From positions 512,001-576,000 of the forward strand of contig OY970340.1 of NCBI GenBank assembly GCA_963717465.1: a stretch of DNA of 64,000 nt, in the 5' to 3' direction. Made by a program: the position numbers and the translations under genes. The notes under the pieces were generated by a model. That model was not told the origin of the DNA and made no database searches. It saw only the letters and a list, made by a program, of their open reading frames with translations. Below, piece by piece: positions 10,080-42,958 of this stretch (positions are counted from its first letter, which is position 1; each line of letters begins with the position of its first letter). The stretch is from Candidatus Bathyarchaeota archaeon. GTDB taxonomy: Archaea; Thermoproteota; Bathyarchaeia; Bathyarchaeales; Bathycorpusculaceae.

Positions 10080-11057
10080 CTATTGCTTTCCTCTATTCCA
10101 ATCTTTCGGCACTTCGATTTGAGCAGTTATTTCGTCTACAAGACCTCGCAAGCTTACGTTTTCTAAGGCATATTCAATCTTCAAAATTAATCGATGTGCC
10201 AGCGTGTCTTTTACAAAGAACTTTACGTCGTCAGGAGTGACAAAATCCCTTCCGTACGTTGCAGCTAATGCCCTGACAACTTTCAACGTTGCTAGCGCTC
10301 CTCGTGGGCTGGAACCGATTTCTATTTTTGGGTGTTCTCTTGTTTTTCTAACAATTTTCGCAATATACTCAATGATTTTCGGGTCAATGTAAACGTCATT
10401 TTCACATTTGTACTGCATATCCAGAAATGTCTTAGAAGTAATGGCAGGCGTAATATCTTCAGTCGGGTCATCTTTCCTCCATTGAATACGATTTCTCAGT
10501 ATTCTGCATTCCTCATCTAAGGATTTAACATAGCCCGTGCTCATCTTCAACGCAAACCGATCAATTTGAGCCTCAGGAAGAGGATATGTGCCTTCAAGCT
10601 CAATGGGATTTTGGGTTGCAATTACAAAGAAGGGCAAAGATAACTTGTGAGTAACGCCTTCGATTGTCACTTGCTGCTCTTCCATCGCTTCAAGTAACGC
10701 TGATTGGGTTTTAGGCGGAGAACGATTAATTTCGTCAGCGAGCAGCACATTGGTGAAAATTGGTCCCTTTTCAAGGAGAAAAGACGAGTTTTTTTGGTCC
10801 CAGACTCTTGTGCCCACAATATCTGCTGGCAACAAATCAGGAGTAAATTGGATTCTTCCCCAATTTGAACCCAGCATCTTTGCAAAAGTTTTAGTCAAAA
10901 GAGTTTTGCCTAATCCAGGGTTGTCTTCGAACAGTACGTGACTGTTGGATAATCCTGCACAGAGAAGCTTTCTTAGCAGTACTTCATCTCCGACGAATAC
11001 TTTTCCTATGCTGTCAAGGGTTTTATCAACTGTTTCTTTCATTTCTTGAAAATCCAT
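10080..11057 (-). CDS. moxR: MoxR-family AAA+ ATPase
   Basis: 'PGLGKT', 'RIQFTPDLLPADI', 'LADEINR', 'ATQNPIELEGTYPLPEAQIDRF'. Confidence 0.95.
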   Translation of the reverse strand: MDFQEMKETVDKTLDSIGKVFVGDEVLLRKLLCAGLSNSHVLFEDNPGLGKTLLTKTFAKMLGSNWGRIQFTPDLLPADIVGTRVWDQKNSSFLLEKGPIFTNVLLADEINRSPPKTQSALLEAMEEQQVTIEGVTHKLSLPFFVIATQNPIELEGTYPLPEAQIDRFALKMSTGYVKSLDEECRILRNRIQWRKDDPTEDITPAITSKTFLDMQYKCENDVYIDPKIIEYIAKIVRKTREHPKIEIGSSPRGALATLKVVRALAATYGRDFVTPDDVKFFVKDTLAHRLILKIEYALENVSLRGLVDEITAQIEVPKDWNRGKQ

Positions 11058-12202
11058 TATTTTTTCTCTCCTGTATTTCTAAATAAGTCAGGTTCCAAAC
11101 TTTTGATAATGCGCTCTACAATTTCTTTTCTTGTTTGCAAGTTCCTTTCTTTTGCAATTTGAAGATCCCATGAGGAAATAATTCGGGGATTTGGAAGCTC
11201 AGTATAATTAATGAGATTGTTTAGAACAAAATCAATTTTTTTAGGGCTAACTTTTCGTGAAAATAACAATTCAAATAAGAACAAAAGTAAATCGTTCTTT
11301 CTTCCAGAACTCAAGAAATCATCCACGTATCGTGTTAGAGCTGAGAATTCTATGGTTGTTTGTAAACCAATTTCTTGCTTATGCTTGGTCCAAGTCTCGA
11401 GTATTAGCGGTGCTGATATGGGAGTAAGGTTGGATTTTAAACGGAAAAATGCAACAACAGTTAATGAGCCAATGAATAACCATTCACCAATAATCGTGAA
11501 AGTTGTGCTTAACTGCAAAAGATAGGCCCTTAAGAACAATACATAAGCAGCTATGATTAAGCCTAATATTATTTTTATCGAAGTGCCATTTCCTATCCAG
11601 CGACCAAAATTCTTAGCTATTGAATTACTTGAATATTGAAGCGGATAGAACAAAGAAGTTGCAGCGGCAAATAAGAAGCCATACAAGCAAATATCTGCAA
11701 CAACAGCATAAGTGCTTGCGAAACAATTTAGCACTGCAAACCTTAGAAGAAACGCTGTGCCGACGAGAACAAAACATCTCAACAATGCAACTGTTATTGT
11801 TTGATGGTAACTTCGCAATACAAAGTCAGCCAAAGAGTAAAGGGAAGCAGCAATGATCAAAATGAAAGTGTATACACTTAACGCTTGAAGCAATGAAGGC
11901 ATGTATTGAATCGTTAAAAAGTAATAAATTATTATGGCAACCATAAAACCGTAGAGCGTATTTGCTATCTGATCCGTGAATTTGCCTTTTAAAAGAATCT
12001 TGTAATAGGTTACAGCAGCAGAAAACGATAAGCCGATGAGGAAGTATGGGAATCCATATTCAAGCGCTGAAAAGATTGTTGATCCTAAATAATTCTCCAA
12101 AGAAAAAACGTCGGAGACAAGCGCGAACCAAAGTAACATAATAACCACGATGTAGGTTACTGTTGCCAAAACCAGTTTCTTTAACAGGTCTTTCTGCATC
12201 AA
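11057..12202 (-). CDS. multi-pass membrane protein
   Basis: About 8 hydrophobic segments; overlaps both neighbours. Confidence 0.75.
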   Translation of the reverse strand: MMQKDLLKKLVLATVTYIVVIMLLWFALVSDVFSLENYLGSTIFSALEYGFPYFLIGLSFSAAVTYYKILLKGKFTDQIANTLYGFMVAIIIYYFLTIQYMPSLLQALSVYTFILIIAASLYSLADFVLRSYHQTITVALLRCFVLVGTAFLLRFAVLNCFASTYAVVADICLYGFLFAAATSLFYPLQYSSNSIAKNFGRWIGNGTSIKIILGLIIAAYVLFLRAYLLQLSTTFTIIGEWLFIGSLTVVAFFRLKSNLTPISAPLILETWTKHKQEIGLQTTIEFSALTRYVDDFLSSGRKNDLLLFLFELLFSRKVSPKKIDFVLNNLINYTELPNPRIISSWDLQIAKERNLQTRKEIVERIIKSLEPDLFRNTGEKK

Positions 12203-28712: not shown

Positions 28713-29642
28713 TCATTTGGTGGTGCTTTCTTGAGGCGGCAGTGGTAATTGCTGTTGCGGTTTGCTCTTTCTATATAAGTAGAAGAATACGCCAATACCG
28801 ACTAAAAGTAAACCTATGCCAAAAAGAATCACTGCTACCGCTTCAATGAACATTATGGTACCATAGCCCTGTGCAAGATAGAATATTGTGTTCTCAGCTG
28901 TTGACCAAAATGATGATTCAGTGCCATATGCTGCTTTATAATCGCTTAGCGCAGTACTGTAGTAGTTTGCTGCATCGGCAAAGTCGCCTGTTGCATAAGC
29001 CTCATCGCCAAGAGCTCTATTGTTATCAGCTTGTTCTTCATAGTTACGAGCATTTCCATCAATAAGAGGCAGAAAACCCAATTGCGTTAAATCAGTGTAA
29101 GCCGAAATTGTCCGATTGTCTTTATAAGCAGTAGCTTGGTTTGCTGAGAAAACTGCGAAATCACTTTCAGTGTCGATGGTCGTAGTGGTTACGGTTCCGC
29201 CAGAGGACTGATTCATTGTATCTACATATACACTGTAACTGTGGGTAACATAATTGGAAGCTATTGAAACAGATGGCACTGTGAAAGTTATCAAGACAAC
29301 ACATGATTGACCAGGTGATAGAATTAAAGCATTTGTTGTGCTGATTGTTGGATTTGTTGAACTGTAATTTGTAGCCCAATCGAAACCAACCTTTACCGCC
29401 GAAATGTTAAGCTGCTCGCTACCGCTATTTGGAATGTAAACTGCTAAGCTAGCATTAGTATTTTCAATGTAAGCTTCATCGACGTAGCCAAGGAACGAAT
29501 CGGAAAAATCTCTTGCAACCGGAGAAATCCAGTTACTTGAAGTAGTATATGCAGCTTTTACAGTTAAGTTAGGCGCAAACCCAAGTGCTATAATTAGAAT
29601 ACCAAAGCAAATAAGTGCACTCATCATTATTTTTTTTCTCAT
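28713..29642 (-). CDS. secreted protein with C-terminal membrane anchor
   Basis: Signal peptide 'MRKKIMMSALICF...', Ser/Thr/Asn-rich body, helical segment, C-terminal TM. Confidence 0.75.
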   Translation of the reverse strand: MRKKIMMSALICFGILIIALGFAPNLTVKAAYTTSSNWISPVARDFSDSFLGYVDEAYIENTNASLAVYIPNSGSEQLNISAVKVGFDWATNYSSTNPTISTTNALILSPGQSCVVLITFTVPSVSIASNYVTHSYSVYVDTMNQSSGGTVTTTTIDTESDFAVFSANQATAYKDNRTISAYTDLTQLGFLPLIDGNARNYEEQADNNRALGDEAYATGDFADAANYYSTALSDYKAAYGTESSFWSTAENTIFYLAQGYGTIMFIEAVAVILFGIGLLLVGIGVFFYLYRKSKPQQQLPLPPQESTTK

Positions 29643-29915
29643 TAATCTTTCCTCTTTGACAGGCAGGTATTTGCCAGCGTTAAGCATATAAGCTTTTTTA
29701 AGATTGCCTCGCTCTTTTGCCTAAAACAATCAGTCCTTTTTCAGATAAAGTGCTGCATTAAGGAAAATCGGTATAAATTTTGAAATCGAAGATGAACTAA
29801 AAAAATAGATTCTTATCTCTATTTGACGGCAATATAGACTTCTTTGGCCTTCGTTTGATAGGGAGCTTATTTTTAGGTACGTTTATATGGGGAGAAAAGG
29901 TAGGAGAGCGTTTTT

Positions 29916-30539
29916 TTAAACAGTTACCCATCCACTGCTTGTTAGTGACGATGGAACTGTAAATTGTATTGTAGCTGACGCTGTTTGCTCAAGGGTAACT
30001 TTAATGTCAACTTGTGATCCCGCTAATGCTCCGTTGGCATTGCTTAAGGATATGACGAGATATCCCTCGCTGTTTGCATTTAATGTGGCACCGTTTGGAA
30101 CGTACATTGCTGCTTTATCTGCTGTTGTGCTTGTTAATAGTGCATCGTAAGTGGTTGATGTTAATGCTTGAACGCCTGAGTATATGTCGGTTGTTATGAC
30201 TCCGTTTGCATCAAAGGTTACTTGTGTCGTGTTTGTGCCTAATGTAACAGTATTCACTCCAACTGCTTTTAATGGAATGACTATGCCTGTTATGTTAGAA
30301 CCATCTGCAGAGGCTTTAACGTAAATATCTCCATCAACGGCTAATGAGGAACTTGCTTGCGTCAAACTCTGCTGAATAACGCTTTTGCTTTGGTTAGAAG
30401 CAAAAAGCCCTTGATCGATAACCATGTAACTAAATACACCGGCAATGATAACGAAAGCTATTAGAATTATCGCCGCCTCTAAAGCAACTATACCACGCCG
30501 CTGCTTTATGAAGCTCCTTAGGTTCTTTTTCCCATTCAT
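29916..30539 (-). CDS. arlB: archaellin
   Basis: Class III signal 'KQRRG|IVALEAAIILIAFVIIAGVFSY'; 16-aa leader. Confidence 0.92.
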   Translation of the reverse strand: MNGKKNLRSFIKQRRGIVALEAAIILIAFVIIAGVFSYMVIDQGLFASNQSKSVIQQSLTQASSSLAVDGDIYVKASADGSNITGIVIPLKAVGVNTVTLGTNTTQVTFDANGVITTDIYSGVQALTSTTYDALLTSTTADKAAMYVPNGATLNANSEGYLVISLSNANGALAGSQVDIKVTLEQTASATIQFTVPSSLTSSGWVTV

Positions 30540-30696: not shown

Positions 30697-30744
30697 CCAT
30701 GGCACCACCCTGTTACCCTGAGGTGGTGCCATGGCGTTTTTTTT
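30697..30744. terminator. perfect 13-bp inverted repeat with a T8 tract on the + strand, between the two archaellins
   Basis: CCATGGCACCACC-N12-GGTGGTGCCATGG followed by CGTTTTTTTT. Confidence 0.6.
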
Positions 30745-30772: not shown

Positions 30773-31651
30773 TTAAGATACGGTGATGTAACTATCTGCC
30801 GGCAAAGCCGATGGAGTCTTGAACGCAACTGTAAGCGTTGAGGAATCTTGCGTTTTTATCTCAACAGTTATTGCTGACGTAGCAGAGGCCTGTGCATTAG
30901 AGCTGAGGGTAATTATCAAGTAACCTTCTGAACCGGAATCTAGTGTCTGGTCTCCATTGCTATTAGCGATTGCAAGGACTGCCCCAGTGCTAAACCCATT
31001 TGCATACGCTGTGGAATATGTTCCATTTACGTATGTGCTGCAGGAGGCGCCGCTCGTTGTTTGATTTGCTAGTTCAAAGCCGACAAAGTTGTCGAATTGC
31101 TGTCCAACTGGGTCGTATACTGTACTTGTTGCATTGTAAACGATGTCGTCATTGGTATATCCTGTGTACATGATGCCATGATACACATTTGCCCAAGCTT
31201 GATTACCAACTTGAAGCATCACGCTTGTTTCGTTTCCTTGCATGTTAACGGAGTTTACCCCAAATGCCTTTAATGGAATTACAATGAGGTCTATAGATCC
31301 GCCACTTGAGGTTGTTCGAACAATGGTCGACCCATCCGTCATCAAAGGTGTACTTGCTTCCTGTAGTCCCTGTTGGATCACAGTTTTGCCTTCATTTGTT
31401 GCGAATAATCCCTGGTTGACAACCATGAAGCTGAAGGCTGCGGCAATAGTTACGAAGGCGATGAGTATAATTGCGGTTTCTAAACCTACGATACCCCGTT
31501 TTTGCTTTACAAAATCCTCCAGGAATTTAGCTCGTCCTGAATTGCGAACTTTTTGATTACATGAAGGACAACTTACCATTTGAAGTACAGATCTTGTATT
31601 CCATTGGTATCCACATTTTGGGCATTTTATGTTCGGTTTTTGTTTAATCAA
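30773..31651 (-). CDS. arlB: archaellin with an N-terminal zinc-ribbon leader
   Basis: 'KQKRG|IVGLETAIILIAFV' at residues 53/54, preceded by CPKC-x14-CPSC. Confidence 0.9.
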   Translation of the reverse strand: MIKQKPNIKCPKCGYQWNTRSVLQMVSCPSCNQKVRNSGRAKFLEDFVKQKRGIVGLETAIILIAFVTIAAAFSFMVVNQGLFATNEGKTVIQQGLQEASTPLMTDGSTIVRTTSSGGSIDLIVIPLKAFGVNSVNMQGNETSVMLQVGNQAWANVYHGIMYTGYTNDDIVYNATSTVYDPVGQQFDNFVGFELANQTTSGASCSTYVNGTYSTAYANGFSTGAVLAIANSNGDQTLDSGSEGYLIITLSSNAQASATSAITVEIKTQDSSTLTVAFKTPSALPADSYITVS

Positions 31652-31655
31652 CTTA

Positions 31656-31685
31656 TACCACTTCTACTACTTCTACCACTTCTAC
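31656..31685. repeat. three tandem 9-bp repeats upstream of the zinc-ribbon archaellin
   Basis: TACCACTTC-TACTACTTC-TACCACTTC-TAC, ending 4 nt before the TTG start. Confidence 0.75.
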
Positions 31686-31850
31686 TTATAGTAGTTAGTA
31701 TTAAGTATTAAGATATACTATATTTAAACTTATTGCAAATAAGTATTCAAAAAACTAACCGTACTACACAAATACAAAATCATAATAGAAATCCATAACT
31801 AAAAAAATGATGGAAAAATAAGAACTGAAAAACTAAAACAAAATCAGAAC

Positions 31851-33419
31851 TTAAACGGACATTTTTAATGAAGGCATCGTATTCAACATAGAATTTATCA
31901 AATTATAAGAAACTATCCAAGTTGCTCCGCTTAAAACAAACAAGATTCCAAGATTCAGGAAAAATGTTCCCCAGTATCCGCCAGAAACCGCTTTAATCGA
32001 TAAAGCATTTACTACAGCAGTCGCTATGATCAAAACCACATTGCCGATTTGAATGACGGCAATGGGCATAGTATTAAACCCAAAGTATGCTACGGTACCC
32101 AAATATGTTGACATAAAACTTGCAAGGACTTCCAGAACTGTAAGGAGAACAACGCTCAGAGGCTGCGTAACCAAAACCACCATCTGAAAACTGCTTGCAA
32201 CAACGTCACGCATTTTTCTAAACTCAAGAAATTTAACGACACGGTTTCCTATCGCGTTAGATATTGTAAGGGGATTAGCACCTCTATCCAAAGCATCAAA
32301 CAGTATTTTATTACTTACATGAATATGATAGGATGCTGCCTCTTCGGAAAGCGCTTCTAGGGATTGCCTGTGATTTATGCCTAAATCCACTCTTGCTATT
32401 GTTGAACGGACAAGCTTGCGTAAAGGTCCAAGTTCCATATGAAGAATAAACGAAAGCGACGTTTTCAAATCAGAAGTTGAAGCCAAGTTTTCACCTAACG
32501 CTTTTAAGAACGTGGGGTAATTCGTCTCAATTTGATTTACTCGTCTTTCGAGCAAGTATCCGAATGTGCCTGGAATAATTGTGCCCAAACCAAAGATTAT
32601 CATAGCATACGGTGCACCCGCTTTAAGGTAAACAAAATAAGATAGAACAACAAAAACAGGCATGACAAACAAAGCAGTCCATTTCAGACATTTATAAGCA
32701 CTTGGCGGGTGTTTTCCAATGTGAACAATTCTTTCTCTGGCTGTTGAATACCATAAGAGGAAAAACATAAGTACGTTCGAAAAAACTGCGACAACATAGC
32801 CTACCCATAACATGTTTCCACTAGCCATGAATACATTCATGAGCACTAAAGTCATAATCAAAAAGATAAGTATGCTTTGGAACGCTGCAAATACGCCCCC
32901 AATAGCCTCCAAAGTTTTAACCATTCTTTCGTAATACCCTGAATACTCTTCCATAAGCATAGAATTCTCCATTTCCAAGTATCCCCTAGGCTCTACGCTG
33001 GAAAACGTGTTCGTACTTCTTATGAGAATGTCCTTTAATGGGGGCTTAACAGTCTTAGCAATCTGATTAGTTGCACTGGTTACTCCATAACCAAAATCCT
33101 TGGCTAAATTACGTATTTTATGGAAAATCTTACTGTAAAAACCGTAATCTTTGCTTTCTGCAATTGTGTTTACAAGATCTTGCGGCGTTGTTTCGCCTAA
33201 AGTTAGGCTATACATGTGGAAGATAACTGTCGTCAAAGTCTGGTCAATTCTTTTCTTAATTGCTCTTTTTCCCGTGTACATTATAATGAATACAAAACTT
33301 AATCCAACACCCAAACTAATTATCGCTTCAATAAATTCGCGACTAAGCATGAAATACAGTGAAAAGATTAGTGTAGGTGTCAATACCAAAACTAATTTGT
33401 TTGTCCGACTTAGGACCAT
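31851..33419 (-). CDS. arlJ: archaellum membrane platform protein
   Basis: Two T2SSF-like cytoplasmic domains with TM bundles, 'YPTFLKALG'; follows the ATPase. Confidence 0.88.
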   Translation of the reverse strand: MVLSRTNKLVLVLTPTLIFSLYFMLSREFIEAIISLGVGLSFVFIIMYTGKRAIKKRIDQTLTTVIFHMYSLTLGETTPQDLVNTIAESKDYGFYSKIFHKIRNLAKDFGYGVTSATNQIAKTVKPPLKDILIRSTNTFSSVEPRGYLEMENSMLMEEYSGYYERMVKTLEAIGGVFAAFQSILIFLIMTLVLMNVFMASGNMLWVGYVVAVFSNVLMFFLLWYSTARERIVHIGKHPPSAYKCLKWTALFVMPVFVVLSYFVYLKAGAPYAMIIFGLGTIIPGTFGYLLERRVNQIETNYPTFLKALGENLASTSDLKTSLSFILHMELGPLRKLVRSTIARVDLGINHRQSLEALSEEAASYHIHVSNKILFDALDRGANPLTISNAIGNRVVKFLEFRKMRDVVASSFQMVVLVTQPLSVVLLTVLEVLASFMSTYLGTVAYFGFNTMPIAVIQIGNVVLIIATAVVNALSIKAVSGGYWGTFFLNLGILFVLSGATWIVSYNLINSMLNTMPSLKMSV

Positions 33420-35074
33420 GGAATTTCCATCCCTCTTATTCTACGTTGCACTTCCCAAATTCCTAAACTGCGTGCAGTGGCCATTGTTTTGGCTACATCA
33501 GTGTATGAAGGAAAGTTTTCTGCGAGGAAACTAAGCACTTCAGCCCTTGCTTGCATTTCATCATAAATATCTTTGATTTTGTCTTTACTCCAGCCTCTAA
33601 ATGCAAGAACTTTATTCTCTAAATGGAAGCTGGAACCCATAAATCGGAATTGATCTAAGTTTTCATCATAAATAAAGATTGGTAAATAGTTTAATTTTCC
33701 CCCATCGGGTTCATAACCGATAACTTCGTTAATAGAGGTGCATCTTCTGATAAATTTCGTTCCTTTCTCAATTCTAGCCTGGAAAATAACTAGATTTAAG
33801 CCGTCTATGTGACTTTTTGGGACGTCAATCGGGTATGACGTCAGCCTTTGAAATAGTTGTCCAAGAGAACCTGCGTGCATTGTAGATAGCACAGGGTGTC
33901 CAGTTTCAACAGCTTGAAAAGCTACTTTCCCTTCTTCACCTCGTAATTCACCAACGATTATGTAGTCAGGTCTTTGTCTTAAGGCCGCTTTTAGCAGGTC
34001 GAACATCGTAACCTGAACTCCAGTGTGCAACCTTGTAACTTCTCTGATCCAGTTTTTGTGGAGGAGATTAATTTCCGGTGTTTCTTCTATGCTGATAATT
34101 TTTGAATCCTGACCGATAAAGGATGTTAAGGCATTCAAAGTTGTCGTTTTGCCAGAGGCTGTCTCACCGCATACTAATGCTGAAACGCCTACCTCAAAGA
34201 GCATCCAAAGATAGGCTGCTAATTCAGCGGTGAACGTGTGCCACTTGATTAACTGCGCGACTGAAATCGGCTCTGTTGGAAACTTCCTTACTGTAAAGTT
34301 GCTGCCTCTTAGGCTTATATCTTCGCCGAAGACTATGTTTAATCTTGAACCATCATCCAAATGAATATCAATTATCGGGTGAGTATAACTTAGAACTTTT
34401 CCGTGCCGTTCCGCTATATTTCTTAGCAACTTGTTAATGGCTTCTTGAGAAAGATCAAGGCTTGTTTCCAAATTGCCAAAAGTGTTGTGGTAAACAAAGA
34501 TTTTACCTGCTCCAGGGATGCTTATGTCTTCAAGCCCTGGATCTGCCAGAAACCCGTCTAAGAAGCCATTTCCGATTTTTTCTCGTAAAAAATGGTAAAG
34601 CAGATTAGTTTCATCAGTTCCTTTTGGAATTTTAACATTCCCCTTCTTTAAGGCGCGCCTAAAGAGCGTAGCTAAAATCTGTGTTTTTTTTTCACCGTAA
34701 TCTTTGCTTTCTACGAGTCTTGCAACTTCTTCTTCAATTGCAGTTAACAATTTTTGGTCTGGCTTTGGCGGTTCGATAATATTGTACCTGTTGCCTGTTT
34801 CATCCATGACCACGTTTGCGTAAATGCCTAAACCTAACGGATAAATTATGTTAACAAACTTTTTGTACGTTATAGCGCTAGCATCACGCGTGTACTCGGG
34901 CGGATCAGGCATTCCTTCAACATAAGATTTCAGGTAAGGGTGCTTTTGCATGGCAGTTGTTAAACTATCGTATACCTCGCGGTTGAATAAGCCTAAATCC
35001 ACGTCTTCCAATTTCTTGTGTCTAACGCGATATATCTTTTTCAAAATTTTTTTAGCTGGAGCCAAAACCGACAT
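33410..35074 (-). CDS. arlI: archaellum assembly/motor ATPase
   Basis: 'GETASGKTT', 'ALRQRPDYIIVGELRG', 'TGHPVLSTMHA'. Confidence 0.93.
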   Translation of the reverse strand: MSVLAPAKKILKKIYRVRHKKLEDVDLGLFNREVYDSLTTAMQKHPYLKSYVEGMPDPPEYTRDASAITYKKFVNIIYPLGLGIYANVVMDETGNRYNIIEPPKPDQKLLTAIEEEVARLVESKDYGEKKTQILATLFRRALKKGNVKIPKGTDETNLLYHFLREKIGNGFLDGFLADPGLEDISIPGAGKIFVYHNTFGNLETSLDLSQEAINKLLRNIAERHGKVLSYTHPIIDIHLDDGSRLNIVFGEDISLRGSNFTVRKFPTEPISVAQLIKWHTFTAELAAYLWMLFEVGVSALVCGETASGKTTTLNALTSFIGQDSKIISIEETPEINLLHKNWIREVTRLHTGVQVTMFDLLKAALRQRPDYIIVGELRGEEGKVAFQAVETGHPVLSTMHAGSLGQLFQRLTSYPIDVPKSHIDGLNLVIFQARIEKGTKFIRRCTSINEVIGYEPDGGKLNYLPIFIYDENLDQFRFMGSSFHLENKVLAFRGWSKDKIKDIYDEMQARAEVLSFLAENFPSYTDVAKTMATARSLGIWEVQRRIRGMEIPWS

Positions 35075-35086
35075 GCATGCACCTCC

Positions 35087-35788
35087 CTAGAGTTTTACGC
35101 CGCTAAGAGGCATTACTCGCAAGCCGATCTGAGAGCTAACTGCAAGAGTTATCGAGCTCTTTCTTTCACCGTTTACTCCCCAAAGCTTTATAGTTCTAAG
35201 TAATTTGACGTCTATTCCGGATATGCAAGCGTTTTCTAATACAAAGTAGGCGTCAGAGTTTGCTCTAAGTTTCATTATGGATTCTTCTGAAAGAAATTCA
35301 GGGTGAAACGTAATAACAACGGTCTTGTTATATGCGACTAGATTTTTTATTTTGGTGATGAACGTTAAGAACTCGTATAACGGTGTATCCATAGTTAAGA
35401 CGCTTAGGCTGTCGATAACAACAACATCATAATCGTGTTTTTTTGATTCAAGAAATTTCGTTATTATCATTAAAAAAAGAGCACTCTTTGACTTGCTCCA
35501 TCTTCCGCCCTCAACATGCAAAGGGAAAATTTTGAGGTAACCGTATAAATAGTAATTGTACGGGTCAAGCCTCACTGATTCCATCATTGAAAGATATTCC
35601 ATAGCCCTTGCTTCGCTTGAAATCACGTAAACTCTAGATTGATTCTTAAGCATCGCATGAACTATTTGCTGAACGAACACGGTTTTCCCAGAGCCATGAT
35701 CGCCTTCAACAAGCATTAGGCTGGGCGTCGGTATTCCACCACCGAGGTCCCTGTCCAATTCTGGAATGCCTAACTTCACTACTTTCAT
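35087..35788 (-). CDS. arlH: archaellum KaiC-like nucleotide-binding protein
   Basis: 'LGGGIP', 'EGDHGSGKT', 'IDSLS'. Confidence 0.92.
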   Translation of the reverse strand: MKVVKLGIPELDRDLGGGIPTPSLMLVEGDHGSGKTVFVQQIVHAMLKNQSRVYVISSEARAMEYLSMMESVRLDPYNYYLYGYLKIFPLHVEGGRWSKSKSALFLMIITKFLESKKHDYDVVVIDSLSVLTMDTPLYEFLTFITKIKNLVAYNKTVVITFHPEFLSEESIMKLRANSDAYFVLENACISGIDVKLLRTIKLWGVNGERKSSITLAVSSQIGLRVMPLSGVKL

Positions 35789-36312
35789 TGTGGACCAGCA
35801 GTCTCCCCTGTTGCTGTCACGCCATAGTAAGAAGCAAAGATTATGGATACAATGTCTTGGGATAAGATTTCTGGGGCTCCATCTGGAATACTCAGGGTAA
35901 TGTTGGCTTGTTCATCTGGATTTAAAACATTATGAGTTACTATGTTAAAGGTGGTGTTGGTACCTGAAATTCCGATTTCTGTTATTTGGTATCCTTCGAT
36001 TGCGTAAGAATTCACTTCTGAGCTGTTACCGTAGGTCAAGATTATTGTATTCCAATTGTAGCCGCTGGAATTTTGAAGGAATATTGTTGTTGACCCAATA
36101 TTCGTTACTGTAATGTTGCATGATGTGGCGCTTACTGAATTAACGGTCAATTGTATGTGTGTATTGAGTTTTTCTTGCTGAGTAGTTGCATAACCATTTG
36201 CTGTTACTGAGAGGTCATTGATACTTGTGAAAAAGACTGCTGAAACTCCGGTAAAGAACACCAAAAAGCCTATGAGCACTACAAACGAAGCTATCGCAAC
36301 AGAAAAACCCAT
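35785..36312 (-). CDS. arlF: archaellum stator protein ArlF-like
   Basis: 'MGFSVAIA' N-terminal TM, 'VTNIGST', 'LNPDE'; position directly before arlH. Confidence 0.7.
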   Translation of the reverse strand: MGFSVAIASFVVLIGFLVFFTGVSAVFFTSINDLSVTANGYATTQQEKLNTHIQLTVNSVSATSCNITVTNIGSTTIFLQNSSGYNWNTIILTYGNSSEVNSYAIEGYQITEIGISGTNTTFNIVTHNVLNPDEQANITLSIPDGAPEILSQDIVSIIFASYYGVTATGETAGPQ

Positions 36313-36321
36313 CTTTCAGCC

Positions 36322-36813
36322 TCATGTTAACGTTGAGAAGAGATAATCATTTCCAATTCCATTAGCAGGTACTACTTTAACTTCAAAAGTTGTGCCGTTA
36401 ATTGCCTCGGTTGGGTAAGCATATATGATTGCAGTTTCTCGCGGTTCCCATACTCCGTTCCCATTTGTGTCTACAATGTAGAACTTTCCGCTTCCTGCCA
36501 AAGCGTTTGAAGCATAATTATAGAGTTGGGCGCTGCCATAATTGCCAACGTAAACGTCCATATCCGCGTAATCGGTTATTGGAAGACTGCCTGTGTTCTT
36601 GGCGTATACTACAAAAACTGGTTGGCTCGTATTCGCTGTGGCATAAATTACTTGTACCTGCGTGTCCACGTTGTTTTTTGCGTTGTTAGCTTCTTGTGTC
36701 ACTTCATTCTGCACAATATTGCCAGTATAGAAGGCACAAGCAACAAAAGCACTTGCTAATATTACAGCACCTATAACCATAATTATGTGGGTTATGGTGA
36801 CTGAGAAGCCCAT
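36322..36813 (-). CDS. arlG: archaellum stator protein ArlG-like
   Basis: 'THIIMVIGAVILAS', 'YAKNTGS', 'DVYVG', 'WEPRET'. Confidence 0.75.
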   Translation of the reverse strand: MGFSVTITHIIMVIGAVILASAFVACAFYTGNIVQNEVTQEANNAKNNVDTQVQVIYATANTSQPVFVVYAKNTGSLPITDYADMDVYVGNYGSAQLYNYASNALAGSGKFYIVDTNGNGVWEPRETAIIYAYPTEAINGTTFEVKVVPANGIGNDYLFSTLT

Positions 36814-37502
36814 TTGTTGGTGCCTCTATTCGACTTCGGCTTTTTGTTGATCTGGTGTTCTGTCACTGCAACGAGTGTTTCCATATCAGCTGGGTCTAAG
36901 TCACTTTTTGTCAATGCAGCCGCTTTGTATAAGAATAACAGCAAATGTCCTTTACCTAAGCCTATTGACCTAAACTTTTCACACGTAACTGCTAAAGAAT
37001 AAATCAACTCGTTAGCTTGTGGCGCTACATAACCCATTAACTCGCATAAACGAGCTAATTCTCGAATATCGCCGGCAGCTAATCCAACGTCAAAAAGATC
37101 CCAAATCCAGTTAATATACTTCGACGCTACAATCGGCTTGACCACCGCTGACTGGGCAGGTTTGCTAGTTTCCTCGATCTGCGGAATCAAAGGTTCCAGC
37201 TTTTTGTCATCATTAGTTCTTGGTTTTCCCAAACTAATGGACTTTATACCCGGCGGGAGACTTTGGTTTTGAACATCTTCTTTCTCACTTGATATTGATT
37301 TCAAAACATTGAACGGATTCTCTATCTCAGTAACAGTAGCGCGTATGTTTGAAATGGATTTCTTGAGGTCACTAACTGAAGATTGAATTTCATTCGATAA
37401 TTCATCAATATCTGTTTTTAGCTCAACAATTTGGTTTTTTTCTTTGGCAGAGTTTGAAAAACTACCATTCTTTGCCTTATTATTATTTTCAACACTTTGC
37501 AT
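36792..37502 (-). CDS. probable ArlC/D/E-like switch protein
   Basis: Coiled coil ending in 'TEIENPFN' (ArlC-like), a low-complexity linker, then 'WIWDL...LCELMGYV' resembling the ArlD/E domain; first gene of the arl operon. Confidence 0.55.
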   Translation of the reverse strand: MQSVENNNKAKNGSFSNSAKEKNQIVELKTDIDELSNEIQSSVSDLKKSISNIRATVTEIENPFNVLKSISSEKEDVQNQSLPPGIKSISLGKPRTNDDKKLEPLIPQIEETSKPAQSAVVKPIVASKYINWIWDLFDVGLAAGDIRELARLCELMGYVAPQANELIYSLAVTCEKFRSIGLGKGHLLLFLYKAAALTKSDLDPADMETLVAVTEHQINKKPKSNRGTNKWASQSP

Positions 37503-37743
37503 AGCGTCGATATCATTATTTGCCAAACAGATTTCTCCTATGTAGTGATAATTTAAGTCGTTAGCGGTCATTATCTTAGGCAAAACCCTATATAATTTAT
37601 GAAGCCTGAATCAATATTGAGCCTGCAGCACGAATAAAAACGCAAAAGTAAAGAACACAACCCTGCTTAGATAGCCGTCCGTATCCGTGAACTTTAAATG
37701 CATGAGTCCAGAAAGTACACATCGAACAATAGGCGCTGATTAA

Positions 37744-39754: not shown

Positions 39755-42144
39755 ACACGAGCCTCATCTTTCGCGCAAAAAGACAAGTTGCTTTTTGAGG
39801 TAGTCATTGGCAGAAGCAAATGATGAGCAGCTTGTTGAAGTAAACAATGAGTTAAGTTTAGGTTTTAGCATTCACGAACTTAAAAACATTCAAGAGTATT
39901 TCAAGAAAGAGAACCGAAACGCCACAGACGTGGAGCTTCAAACCATCAGTCAAACTTGGTCAGAACACTGCTACCACAAAACCTTCAAGGGAAAAGTCAA
40001 AGTAGGCAACAAAGAAATTGATAGCCTCTTTAAAACTTACATTGCCAAGGCAACAAAAGAAATCAATCCGCATTGGTGCTTTAGTGTTTTTGAAGACAAT
40101 GCAGGAATAATCCGCTTTGACAAAGGCTTTGGAATAGCGGCAAAAGTTGAAACGCACAATCATCCCTCAGCTGTTGAACCTTTCGGTGGAGCAGCCACAG
40201 GCACAGGCGGCGTAATACGGGACATTCTTGGAGTATGGGCTGACCCAATCGCATGCACGGACGTGCTGGGTTTTGGACCTTTAGATTACGATTACCAAAA
40301 ACTGCCTGCAGGAATAAAACATCCTAAATACGTTTACAGGGGCGTTGTTTCAGGCATAGGCACTTATGGAAACAACATGGGCATTCCAACAGTTAACGGA
40401 GCAGTATATTTTGATGAGAGTTACACAGGGAACGTCATTGTTTACTGTGGATGCGTAGGACTTCTGCCGCTTGAAAAATACATTAAAAATGCGAAGCCAA
40501 ACCACATCGTTGTTTTAGCTGGTGGAAAAACAGGCAGAGACGGAATCCACGGCGTAACCTTCGCTTCAGCTGAATTAACAGAGAAATCAGAAGTAGTTTC
40601 TCGTCCTGCTGTGCAAATTGCGGATCCAATAGAGGAAGAAAAACTTAAACGTGCAATAATTGAGATTCGAGACCGTAGGATTAGGCTCTGCAACAACAGA
40701 TCTTGGCGGAGGAGGATTATCCTCAGCTCTTGGGGAAACAGCTGAAAAATACAATTGTGGAACAACCATTGACCTGGCGAAGATTCCGTTGAAGTATCAG
40801 GGTTTAGCACCTTGGGAAATTTACATTTCAGAATCTCAAGAAAGGATGCTGCTGACTGTTTCACCTGAAAACTTGGATGCTGTAATGGCGGTTTTCGAAA
40901 AAGAAGATGTACAAGCAACTGCAATAGGCACGTTGACAACTGAGCGCCGTTTAAAACTGAAATATCAGCAGCGAAGTTGTTGCGGATTTGGAAATGGATT
41001 TTCTTTTTAACCCAATTAAAACCACGAAAACCGCAGTAATCGAAAACGTCTGTTTCACTGAACCCGAATTTTCTGAGCCTACAAACTTAACTCAGACCCT
41101 ACTGCAATTGATTTCTGCTCCAAACATTGCCAGCAAAGAAAGCGTAATTCGCAGTTACGACCATGAAGTGAAGGGAAACACGTTACTTAAACCGTTGCAG
41201 GGCAAGTACGCTGGACCAAACGATGCAGCCGTGCTAAAACCACTTGACAGTTCATTGAAAGGCTTGGTTATTTCTTGCGGTATGAACCCGAATTACGGCA
41301 AAATCGACGCTTACTGGATGGCAGCTTCAGCCCTCGATGAGGCAGTGAGAAATAATGTTGCGGTTGGCGGCAGAAGAATTGCCTTGCTGGATAATTTCGT
41401 ATGGGGAAATCCTGAGAAACCAGAACGATTAGGCTCACTTGTAAGAGCCTGTGAAGCTTGTTATGATTTTGCCAAGATATTTAAGAACCCCCTTCATATC
41501 CGGCAAGGATAGCCTCTACAACGAATCCCCGCTTGGTCCAGTAACGCCAACATTACTGATAACAGCAATCGGTGTAATTCCGAACATTCAATCAACCGTT
41601 TCCATGGATCTGAAAGCACCTGGCAACGCACTCTACATAATAGGTGAAACATACAATGAGCTAGGCGGCTCCGAATACTACAAGCAAAAAGGCTTTCTCG
41701 GCGCAACAGTACCCAAAGGTACATGGTGGCAAAGCAAAAAAAACCTTTAAAGCGGTAACTAAAGCCATCGATTACGGCTTAATCAAGTCTTGCCATGACT
41801 TATCTGAAGGTGGATTAGCAGTTGCAGCTGCTGAGATGGCTTTTGCAGGCGGCTACGGATTAGAACTGGATTTAAAAAAGGTTCCAGGTAAGGGTTTTGA
41901 TAGAAATGATTTTGTTCTCTTTTCAGAATCAAACAGCCGTTTCCTGCTTGAAGTGGCAGAAAAGGAGAAAAAAGATTTTGAAGCCTTGATGAAAGGGAAA
42001 GTCTGCGTTCAAATCGGGAAAGTAACAAGAGAAGAAAAGCTTCTCATTCATGGGTTGGATGGATCGGTTGTCGTAGATGCTTCATTATCTAGCTTGATTG
42101 ATAGTTGGAAGAAAACATTAAGCAGCGAGGCGCAGCCAAGTTGA
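39751..42144 (+). CDS. purL: FGAM synthase subunit PurL; several frameshifts
   Basis: 'WSEHCYHK', '[20 protein letters not shown]', 'SESQERM', 'YDHEV', '[10 protein letters not shown]', 'HDLSEGG', 'LFSESNSRF' spread over consecutive frames. Confidence 0.93.
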
Positions 42145-42958
42145 AGCGGGAAGAAATTAAAATTTGCGTTCTACGAGTTGGAGGAACGAACTGTGACGCA
42201 GAAACCCAGCGGGCCATCCAAGAGTTTGGTGTGCAAGCCCAAGTTTTGCATGTTAACGAGTTAATAAAAAAGCCAAACCTTCTAGATTTTCATGCTTTGG
42301 TTTTTCCAGGCGGCTTCTCTTTCGGCGATTACGTGCGGTCAGGCGTGATTTTTGCCAGAATGCTTTCAGCAAAATTGGGAAAGGAAATGAACACTTTTGT
42401 CGATGAAGGCAGACCGATTCTGGGAATTTGCAACGGTTTTCAAATACTTGTTGAATACGGGTTACTTCCAGGCTTTGAAGGCATGAGCGATTACCCCGAA
42501 GCTTCGCTGGCCAAACAACCAGCCAAGGCTACAAATGCCAATGGATTCACCTTAGAAGCGAAAACAAGGGAAAATGCGTCTTTTCAAGCAAAATCCCAAC
42601 AGGCAAAATTCTACGAATGCCGATTGCACACGGTGAAGGGCGACTGCTGTTTCCAAAAGAGAAAGAAGAGAAAATGTTGGCTAAACTCATTGATGAGGAC
42701 ATGCTGGTGTTCCGTTACTGCGGTGAAAACGGTGAACCTGCAGAGGGGAAATACCCAATTAATCCAAACGGCTCATTCAGTGACATCGCTGGAATATGCA
42801 ATAAGGAAGGTAACATTTTCGGTTTGATGCCGCATCCTGAAAGAGCAATGTACTGGTGGCAACAACCCGACTGGACACGGCAAAAAAGAATGGCGCAGTT
42901 CGGTGATGGAAAACTGGTTTTTGAAAGTCTGATTGAAAATTTAGTGAAAAAGCCGTAA
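42141..42958 (+). CDS. purQ: FGAM synthase glutaminase subunit PurQ; frameshift near 42510-42620
   Basis: 'GTNCD', 'PGGFSFGD', 'LGICNGFQ', 'AHGEG', 'MPHPER'. Confidence 0.93.

Follow-up and report, generated by a model that had tools for sequence, protein, structure and literature searches.

A zinc ribbon in the class III leader of a bathyarchaeal archaellin and the promoter repeats that accompany it

The archaellum locus and its ribbon archaellin

The window, the whole stretch of 64,000 nucleotides of bathyarchaeal DNA analysed here, carries a complete archaellum motor operon on its reverse strand and, downstream of it on the same strand, two archaellin genes. The first gene of the operon (36792..37583), found in 26 of 35 loci, encodes a coiled-coil protein that is ArlX/ArlCDE-like by position, its match to ArlX being weak (E 0.2). 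The ArlF and ArlG stator genes (35785..36813) and the KaiC-like ATPase ArlH (35087..35788) follow, all recognized by profile match, and then the assembly ATPase ArlI (33410..35074; T2SSE, E 4e-33) and an ArlJ-like platform protein (31851..33419), assigned from a weak T2SSF match under the cut-off and from its conserved position. Next comes a gene at 30773..31651, whose place beside the motor operon is also conserved; it encodes a precursor of 292 aa from a TTG start, with no stop in its 292 codons. A perfect 13-bp inverted repeat at 30697..30734, just after this gene, is terminator-like and may act as such, suggesting that in this genome the gene is transcribed separately. Many relatives, by comparison, have further archaellins directly downstream of it. 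The second archaellin of the window (29916..30539) does have the 16-aa leader ascribed to it in an earlier note on this DNA. The genome also encodes seven chemoreceptors scoring over the cut-off and two CheW-domain genes. No study of motility in Bathyarchaeia was found in the literature searched.

Other parts of the window are recorded here for completeness. Downstream of the second archaellin lies a gene (28713-29687) for a protein of 324 aa, which has a signal at its N-terminus, an Ig-like central part, a pair of TPR-like helices and, at its C-terminus, a membrane anchor; it is not conserved at this place in relatives. Further away, regions that we take from their residue patterns to be PurL-like (39807-42144) and PurQ-like (42105-42958) appear broken up, the former over ORFs 39807, 40660, 40988, 41451 and 41836 and the latter over two ORFs, likely through sequencing frameshifts.

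The 292-aa precursor has near its N-terminus a zinc ribbon core, C10-x2-C13-x3-W17-x10-C28-x2-C31 (31559..31624), continues through a linker into a basic amphipathic class III leader ending in KQKRG (31493..31558) and then enters the hydrophobic N-terminal helix, or H-domain, of the mature archaellin (31430..31492), all on the reverse strand. Cleavage by ArlK/PibD is predicted at 31493/31492; Gly53 terminates at 31493 and IVGLETAIILIAF follows directly, which makes a canonical class III site (KRG/IVGLE) with Ile at +1, Gly at +3 and Glu at +5. The helix scores over the cut-off of TIGR02537, and Pfam Arch_flagellin (PF01917) matches residues 53-277 with an E of 4e-13 (50.3 bits; cut-off 29.5). 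The predicted structure of the whole precursor has a mean pLDDT of 60; its top structural matches are archaellins, the best being that of A. pernix, 7txi (Z 17.0, rmsd 6.4, 182 aligned). The protein is an archaellin (ArlB) by domain, fold and gene context. It shares with archaellins generally (ArlB/FlaB, PF01917) the cleavage motif, the H-domain, the Ig-like fold, the arlG/F/H/I/J neighbourhood and the presence of ArlK/PibD in the genome, which encodes one such peptidase, in the region C1:2749350-2750096 of G000, with both catalytic Asp motifs. The difference lies in the leader, which in ribbon archaellins is 52-57 aa long and contains a folded domain that selection maintains. The earlier note had described an archaellin whose leader is a zinc ribbon of 53 aa, an observation confirmed, with the refinement that follows, by the reading frame, the Pfam match, the fold and the conservation given below.

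The ribbon proper covers residues ~5-36, and the ~17 aa from there to the cut site are a class III leader of the ordinary sort, basic and amphipathic, so the 53-aa leader is a ribbon plus a conventional leader. The leaders of ribbon archaellins measure 52-57 aa, and those of 72 paralog rows 7-21 aa. The former fall outside the ~3-30 aa of the short hydrophilic leader of a class III signal peptide, though their last ~17 residues form a conventional one. Substrates of ArlK have leaders of 11-12 aa (PMC10117864), and the available text of PMC4471445 gives 6-26 aa, up to ~30 aa, for class III leaders. In the literature searched, in which reviews give 3-30 aa, no test of a folded class III leader of 53 aa was found.

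The cut site is strongly conserved. Arg, Lys or His at -2, Gly or Ala at -1, Ile at +1, Gly at +3 and Glu at +5 are kept in 32 of 32 ribbon rows, all of which also show the features of the archaeal class III rule as set out in the available text of PMC4371748, namely a charged residue at -2, Gly, Ala or Ser at -1 and an H-domain thereafter. One row has His (H72) at -2, and 1 of 74 metagenome fusions has Arg at -1. Such conservation argues that the precursor is cut, and removal of the ribbon leader by ArlK/PibD is predicted. The fused copy with Arg at -1 (L232:192-390) may be a non-cleavable variant or a sequencing error.

The fusion is kept across related genomes. With residues 1-75 as the query, 31 proteins were recovered among 62 candidates, 16 of them with the whole ribbon and its four cysteines. 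Of 301 genomes drawn from the same family, 41 matched an archaellin at E <= 1e-20. Taking the best loci from 30 of these and adding one other gave a set of 31, and at all 31 the ribbon is fused and has its four cysteines. No ribbon was found in the one stretch taken from each of the other 11 genomes; one of these stretches has no archaellin row, and some are on short contigs. The ribbon is fused in frame at 33 of 34 GTDB loci and, in metagenomes, at 74 of the best 80 of 91 loci, 73 of these with a canonical site; besides the one with Arg at -1, the remaining metagenome loci comprise three at contig ends and three that are free-standing and represent one 44-aa protein. These sets of 31, 34 and 80 loci overlap, and recurrence in 31/31, 33/34 and 74/80 loci discounts chance or assembly error. 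Relatives are recorded as Bathyarchaeia, and one genome of another family (L070) also has the fusion.

The linker is found in six lengths, of 21-26 aa, and is in frame at every fused locus. A comparison of 31 loci, with synonymous sites close to saturation, gave the ribbon a pN/pS of 0.14, between the 0.07 of the archaellin helix and the 0.26 of the following 35 codons (the first beta region); these values indicate purifying selection on the ribbon. In a quick tree built from 133 mature domains, a single clade (SH-aLRT 99) takes in 32 of the 33 ribbon archaellins and one plain row; the last ribbon archaellin (L102) falls outside it, beside plain paralogs. The simplest reading of this tree is a single origin of ribbon archaellins followed by some exchange.

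It might be supposed that translation of the archaellin begins internally, giving a short leader, and that the ribbon is a separate or vestigial upstream peptide. Some ATG, GTG or TTG does occur in the linkers of 16 of 30 loci and 41 of 73 metagenome loci, and databases often call the gene from a linker Met (P0023, P0024, P0027-29). None occurs in the other 14 of 30 and 32 of 73, among them the window gene, where the earlier note had rightly found no such codon in frame between Cys31 and the cut site and where the sole near-start is a CTG at -10. The positions are not conserved, and no stop separates ribbon from archaellin despite the six linker lengths, so this possibility is very remote; a conserved internal start, in particular, is ruled out by the lack of any fixed start position in the linkers of the 30 and 73 loci. 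Gene callers cut ribbon-archaellin genes short, and the fusion is easily overlooked as a result. The window gene's own database record begins at Met25, within the ribbon (P0018).

The ribbon family and its gene contexts

The four cysteines lie on two hairpin turns as two CxxC knuckles and are invariant in 27 of 27 diverse rows; the ribbon presumably binds zinc. Modelled alone in AlphaFold it folds with a mean pLDDT of 80 (core 85-89). Nothing in Pfam or NCBIfam scored over the cut-off for the leader, including Brz, MJ0042, HypA, TFIIB and DUF5817, Pfam Brz reaching E 0.009, under its cut-off. Among seven relatives only one passed (L073), matching Zn_ribbon_TFIIS over a partial stretch at 22.7 bits against 21. 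PHROG matches were weak, a sequence search of solved structures gave no relative at E < 0.016, and Foldseek gave no match to the ribbon model at E <= 0.001. Structural comparison of the model by VIA reached Z 3.7 at best, a weak match, with small two-knuckle fingers, and its Atlas neighbours are unnamed clusters of 40-50 aa. The ribbon belongs to a large family without a library name. When 401 genomes of the class and 401 of the phylum were searched with ribbon profiles, 49 and 29 respectively contained relatives, and a full-library search gave 2971 clusters (50% identity, E <= 0.001), a count that includes unrelated multi-finger proteins and, among its long matches, some DUF4379/CapR proteins. 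The best 150 clusters include 143 new ones, of which 70 are <=75 aa.

Many members are free-standing. Free ribbon proteins have 40-55 aa, 40-45 aa in the close relatives of the leader ribbon, and many are encoded directly before tnpB; one lies before cas1 and some lie in virus-like DNA, and one genome (G787) contains 14 ribbon copies. TnpB elements of other Thermoproteota (L140-L149, L163) open with a hairpin end, a TATA box, GTAG repeats and a 40-aa ribbon gene, after which comes tnpB; no transposase gene was seen between hairpin end and tnpB. At the cas1 locus (L074:430-1488) the free ribbon gene, directly upstream of cas1, is associated with five antisense repeats. Tandem arrays of two to five ribbons also occur; four proteins (P0034, P0154, P0165, P0181) were seen with three to six copies.

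A remnant of the archaellin fusion exists at L117:9900-10330, where promoter, repeats and four-cysteine ribbon are kept and the archaellin part is frameshifted and decayed. Its frame ends three codons short of the former cut site. In this single case the ribbon departs from the conserved T[RK]S word, and the queries used brought up neither an archaellin nor ArlJ elsewhere in the genome; the next gene (10470-11087) belongs to no recognized family.

In fused form the ribbon occurs on DNA methylases and nucleases, in weak RHH-like fusions, and at the N-terminus of a NuoE-like [2Fe-2S] subunit that heads an operon. The NuoE-like first-gene products come from several Bathyarchaeia families (L078, L081, L083, L084, L180-L195), and GGTAGGTAG repeats precede their genes. 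They have no peptidase site, so cleavage must be dispensable for ribbon function there. The earlier note had offered, as an alternative, that the ribbon gates processing by metal or redox state; the same ribbon in proteins lacking a peptidase site leaves this without support.

Four of 14 ribbon-less NuoE-like proteins (L196:1210-1938, L207:1204-1935, L197 and L198) have another small N-terminal domain in the same slot, RHH-like in character, and their genes have a different, palindrome-like upstream element. The domain scores 0.94 in Atlas to CopG/RHH clusters and matches the PHROG 876 repressor at E 8e-6 and 7e-5. Pfam and PDB sequence searches gave no RHH match for the N-termini of L196 and L207, and the RHH identity is drawn from Atlas, PHROG 876 and the residue pattern. 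In fusions of the PutA type an RHH domain stands on the first enzyme of an operon for self-regulation, and the RHH-like NuoE proteins would be self-regulating enzyme fusions of this kind. Sharing their slot, the ribbon takes a place that belongs to self-regulating DNA-binding domains. Some archaeal tnpB units are likewise headed by small genes of the RHH or AbrB/MazE type (PMC10691335, available text). The ribbon therefore fills both the RHH/MazE slot before tnpB and the fusion slot on a first enzyme, with a fold that differs from RHH; fusion into a cleavable leader is not described for the RHH/MazE modules in the available text of PMC10691335.

Repeats at the promoters of ribbon genes

The ribbon-archaellin gene has a predicted BRE and TATA box (CAATAAG TTTAAATA; 31721..31735, reverse strand), the TATA box itself falling at 31728-31721, and a TTTATTAA-type box is kept at the same place in relatives. 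Between this box and the start codon lies an array of RGTRG repeats (31658..31694, reverse strand), six sense and one antisense with a 9-nt period, which is a predicted operator. The motif averages 0.27 copies in 2450 upstream windows of the genome, and seven copies occur only here and in one other. The second archaellin has no upstream array.

The array accompanies the fusion. At least three copies precede 32 of 33 ribbon-archaellin rows (one genome being counted twice, and the single miss being an assembly gap) and 68 of 72 metagenome fusions, as against 2 of 80 plain rows (one gene being counted twice) and 1 of 39 rows from ribbon-less relatives. RGTAG, which does not resemble a Shine-Dalgarno sequence, shows the same trend (at least two copies in 24 of 33 ribbon rows and 0 of 80 plain). 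Many plain rows are operon-internal and have no promoter, which weakens the contrast; plain archaellin genes with TATA boxes of their own also have no array. A short upstream ORF inside the repeats (VEVV...) was considered and rejected, its frame and stops not being conserved.

The motif, derived from archaellin genes, was then applied to gene classes outside its source. Present at least twice in 11 of 93 background windows, it reached that number at 10 of 10 NuoE-like fusions, at 8 of 9 ribbons linked to TnpB and at 9 of the 22 other free ribbons. In a de novo count of 5-mers, from which redundant loci and five distant free ribbons were left out, GGTAG, GTAGT and AGTAG were the top words in the three non-archaellin classes. 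In a paired control of the 30 best NuoE-like loci, all 16 with the ribbon had at least two copies and none of the 14 lacking it did. Because every gene class represents a single clade, counts inside a class are not independent. Candidate cognate repeats thus come and go with the ribbon at its own promoter, the exceptions being 13 of the 22 other free ribbons and all 4 viral ribbons, which have one copy at most. A strict search for the repeat pattern in five ribbon-bearing and five ribbon-less genomes missed ribbon promoters, its single match lying off ribbon genes. The motor-operon promoter has 0-1 copies of the motif in 26 of 26 upstream regions, and the predicted target is therefore the archaellin unit.

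These data suggest a possible role for the leader, that its ribbon binds the RGTRG repeats at its own promoter and that ArlK/PibD frees a peptide of 52-57 residues which damps transcription of its own gene. We regard this as plausible at slightly less than an even chance. The repeats would be read as DNA, and the freed peptide would be the active form; repression is the sign suggested by the position of the repeats, which lie over or after the predicted transcription start.

The main rival is a serious one, if fairly unlikely: the ribbon may bind the repeats as single-stranded RNA of the 5' UTR and control translation through the ribosome-binding site, cleavage still releasing the ribbon. It is prompted by the strand of the archaellin repeats, nearly all of which are sense. 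In 13 loci 71 of 74 copies are on the sense strand, at or after the predicted start site, and in metagenome archaellin loci 373 are sense and 2 antisense; this bias and the 5' UTR position fit RNA binding equally well. The repeats extend to the start codon, GGTGG resembles a ribosome-binding site, and 11 of 28 loci have no ATG at the expected place (TTG 5, GTG 4, ACG 1, none 1). The ribbon model moreover weakly resembles RanBP2-type fingers (ZRANB2, FUS), eukaryotic binders of single-stranded RNA, in its two-knuckle form, its conserved Trp and the G-U-rich words concerned, with Z 2.1-2.5 (2.2 for the FUS finger bound to UGGUG, 2.1 for RBM5). Such scores are at the level of a common arrangement, there is no sequence match between the two, and the cysteine spacing of the RanBP2 consensus differs from that of the ribbon. 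RanBP2-type fingers bind GGU in single-stranded RNA (PMC6384913, available text). Outside the archaellin class the placement of the repeats speaks for DNA. In five free or tnpB-linked loci (L074, L127, L147, L132, L072) antisense repeats lie after the TATA box and 10-24 nt upstream of the predicted start site. They would stay untranscribed there, which favours a DNA target; in the NuoE and tnpB classes the repeats straddle the predicted start site, and one locus (L136) has a palindromic array. The TATA boxes and start sites used here are predictions, several of them doubtful picks. The RHH-like domain that takes the ribbon's slot on NuoE-like proteins is of a DNA-binding fold, a further point against RNA as the target.

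The ribbon could instead be a module for protein interaction or for metal or redox sensing, of the ZitP/MJ0042 kind, acting as a gate on processing or as a dock between subunit and motor, with the repeats as translation enhancers or SD-like elements. ZitP is a membrane protein with an N-terminal ribbon and is tied to pili; the ribbon has a weak likeness to its zinc finger (2nb9: Z 3.0, E 0.054), and the conserved place beside the motor operon would suit a docking role. The repeats, however, follow the ribbon into TnpB, Cas1 and NuoE contexts, where no motor or peptidase partner is present, occur in antisense and vanish with the ribbon, and we consider a module of this sort quite improbable.

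The leader as a candidate regulator

The reading preferred here, repression of the archaellin gene by its own cleaved leader, starts from facts that are directly established: ribbon and archaellin share one reading frame, this arrangement is conserved, the cleavage motif is intact, a gene for the peptidase is present, and the repeats go closely with the ribbon even where the gene contexts are unrelated. On the proposed scheme the gene would be transcribed from its own promoter and the precursor inserted in the membrane with the ribbon on the inside. ArlK/PibD would cleave after Gly53, the mature subunit would enter the filament, and the peptide of 52-57 residues, free in the cytoplasm, would bind the repeats at the start site and lower transcription. 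One peptide per processed subunit would tie archaellin synthesis to the rate of precursor processing. The earlier note had proposed that processing releases a folded zinc-finger peptide into the cytoplasm, and the cut site, the peptidase, the fold of the ribbon alone and the existence of free relatives support that well; it had further proposed a signal reporting filament assembly, of which the signal may stand, as one of precursor processing and not of assembly as such. As to origin, a portable unit of promoter, repeats and ribbon, such as stands at the head of TnpB elements and other mobile DNA, would have been captured by an archaellin, probably once and by one copy of a duplicated gene.

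The active form might also be the uncut precursor, tethered in the membrane as ToxR is, with removal by ArlK/PibD as the off-switch, so that a backlog of precursor shuts the gene down. Class III leaders face the cytoplasm until they are cut, and are cut on that side (PMC4471445, available text); on NuoE-like proteins and DNA methylases, moreover, the ribbon persists at the N-terminus with no means of being cleaved off. Against this, the free members of 40-45 aa and the remnant in L117 speak for a peptide that functions by itself, which makes tethering improbable. The free members mark the ribbon as a complete unit and, with the remnant, point to a free peptide as a natural form, as repression by the cleaved leader supposes.

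Membrane precursors and signal peptides with regulatory functions have precedents in proteolysis of the SREBP/ATF6 type, the Rem signal peptide of MMTV and PilA peptide signalling in Caulobacter. As in these cases, a precursor in the membrane would be cut by a membrane protease to yield a regulatory fragment in the cytoplasm; unlike there, the protease would be a housekeeping prepilin peptidase, the precursor a structural subunit of a filament, and the target of the fragment its own gene. Brz, a small four-cysteine protein of archaea, changes archaellin levels and swimming when lost. According to the available text of PMC12949519, loss of small four-cysteine zinc-finger micro-proteins of Haloferax likewise alters archaellin levels and swimming; these are free-standing and no target site is given there, in contrast to the leader-embedded ribbon. 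The archaellum regulators ArnA/ArnB, ArnR/ArnR1, Abfr1 and EarA are separate proteins, none of them described as part of an archaellin in the available text of PMC10117864; the ribbon would resemble them in controlling an archaellin promoter through short nearby sites.

Leaders of type IV pilins are usually treated as short disposable tags. If the proposal is correct, a leader with a folded regulator under selection answers the question of how a cell matches the synthesis of filament subunits to their processing. Small zinc-finger proteins affect motility in Haloferax, and the repeats provide a predicted target site for a large family of small archaeal zinc ribbons. What is new is the ribbon family, its occurrence before TnpB and Cas1 and on the NuoE-like gene, and the RGTRG repeats that travel with it. 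No description of the fusion or of the ribbon-repeat module was found in the open-licence PMC and bioRxiv literature searched, though supplementary tables to TnpB or archaellum surveys could list these ribbons. Taken as a whole, the picture of a regulator inside a class III signal peptide, with a prepilin peptidase as a signalling protease, one repressor per archaellin as a subunit counter, and an undescribed portable module of ribbon and RGTRG repeats before tnpB and on first operon genes, is put forward tentatively, and we would judge its chances to be somewhat below even.

Two further upstream elements were noticed. Outside the window (G000:C1:1906650-1906720) a (TAAGTAG)x4 array lies just after a TATA box and before the gene for a probably secreted protein of 504 aa; it is a possible second target of the ribbon. 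An ATTCnGA-like element (e.g. TTGATTCnnnnTTCATA), seen in the window at 37583-37620 and upstream of TATA boxes in L087-L118, is conserved before the motor operon and before many ribbon-archaellin promoters, and is likely the site of another regulator.
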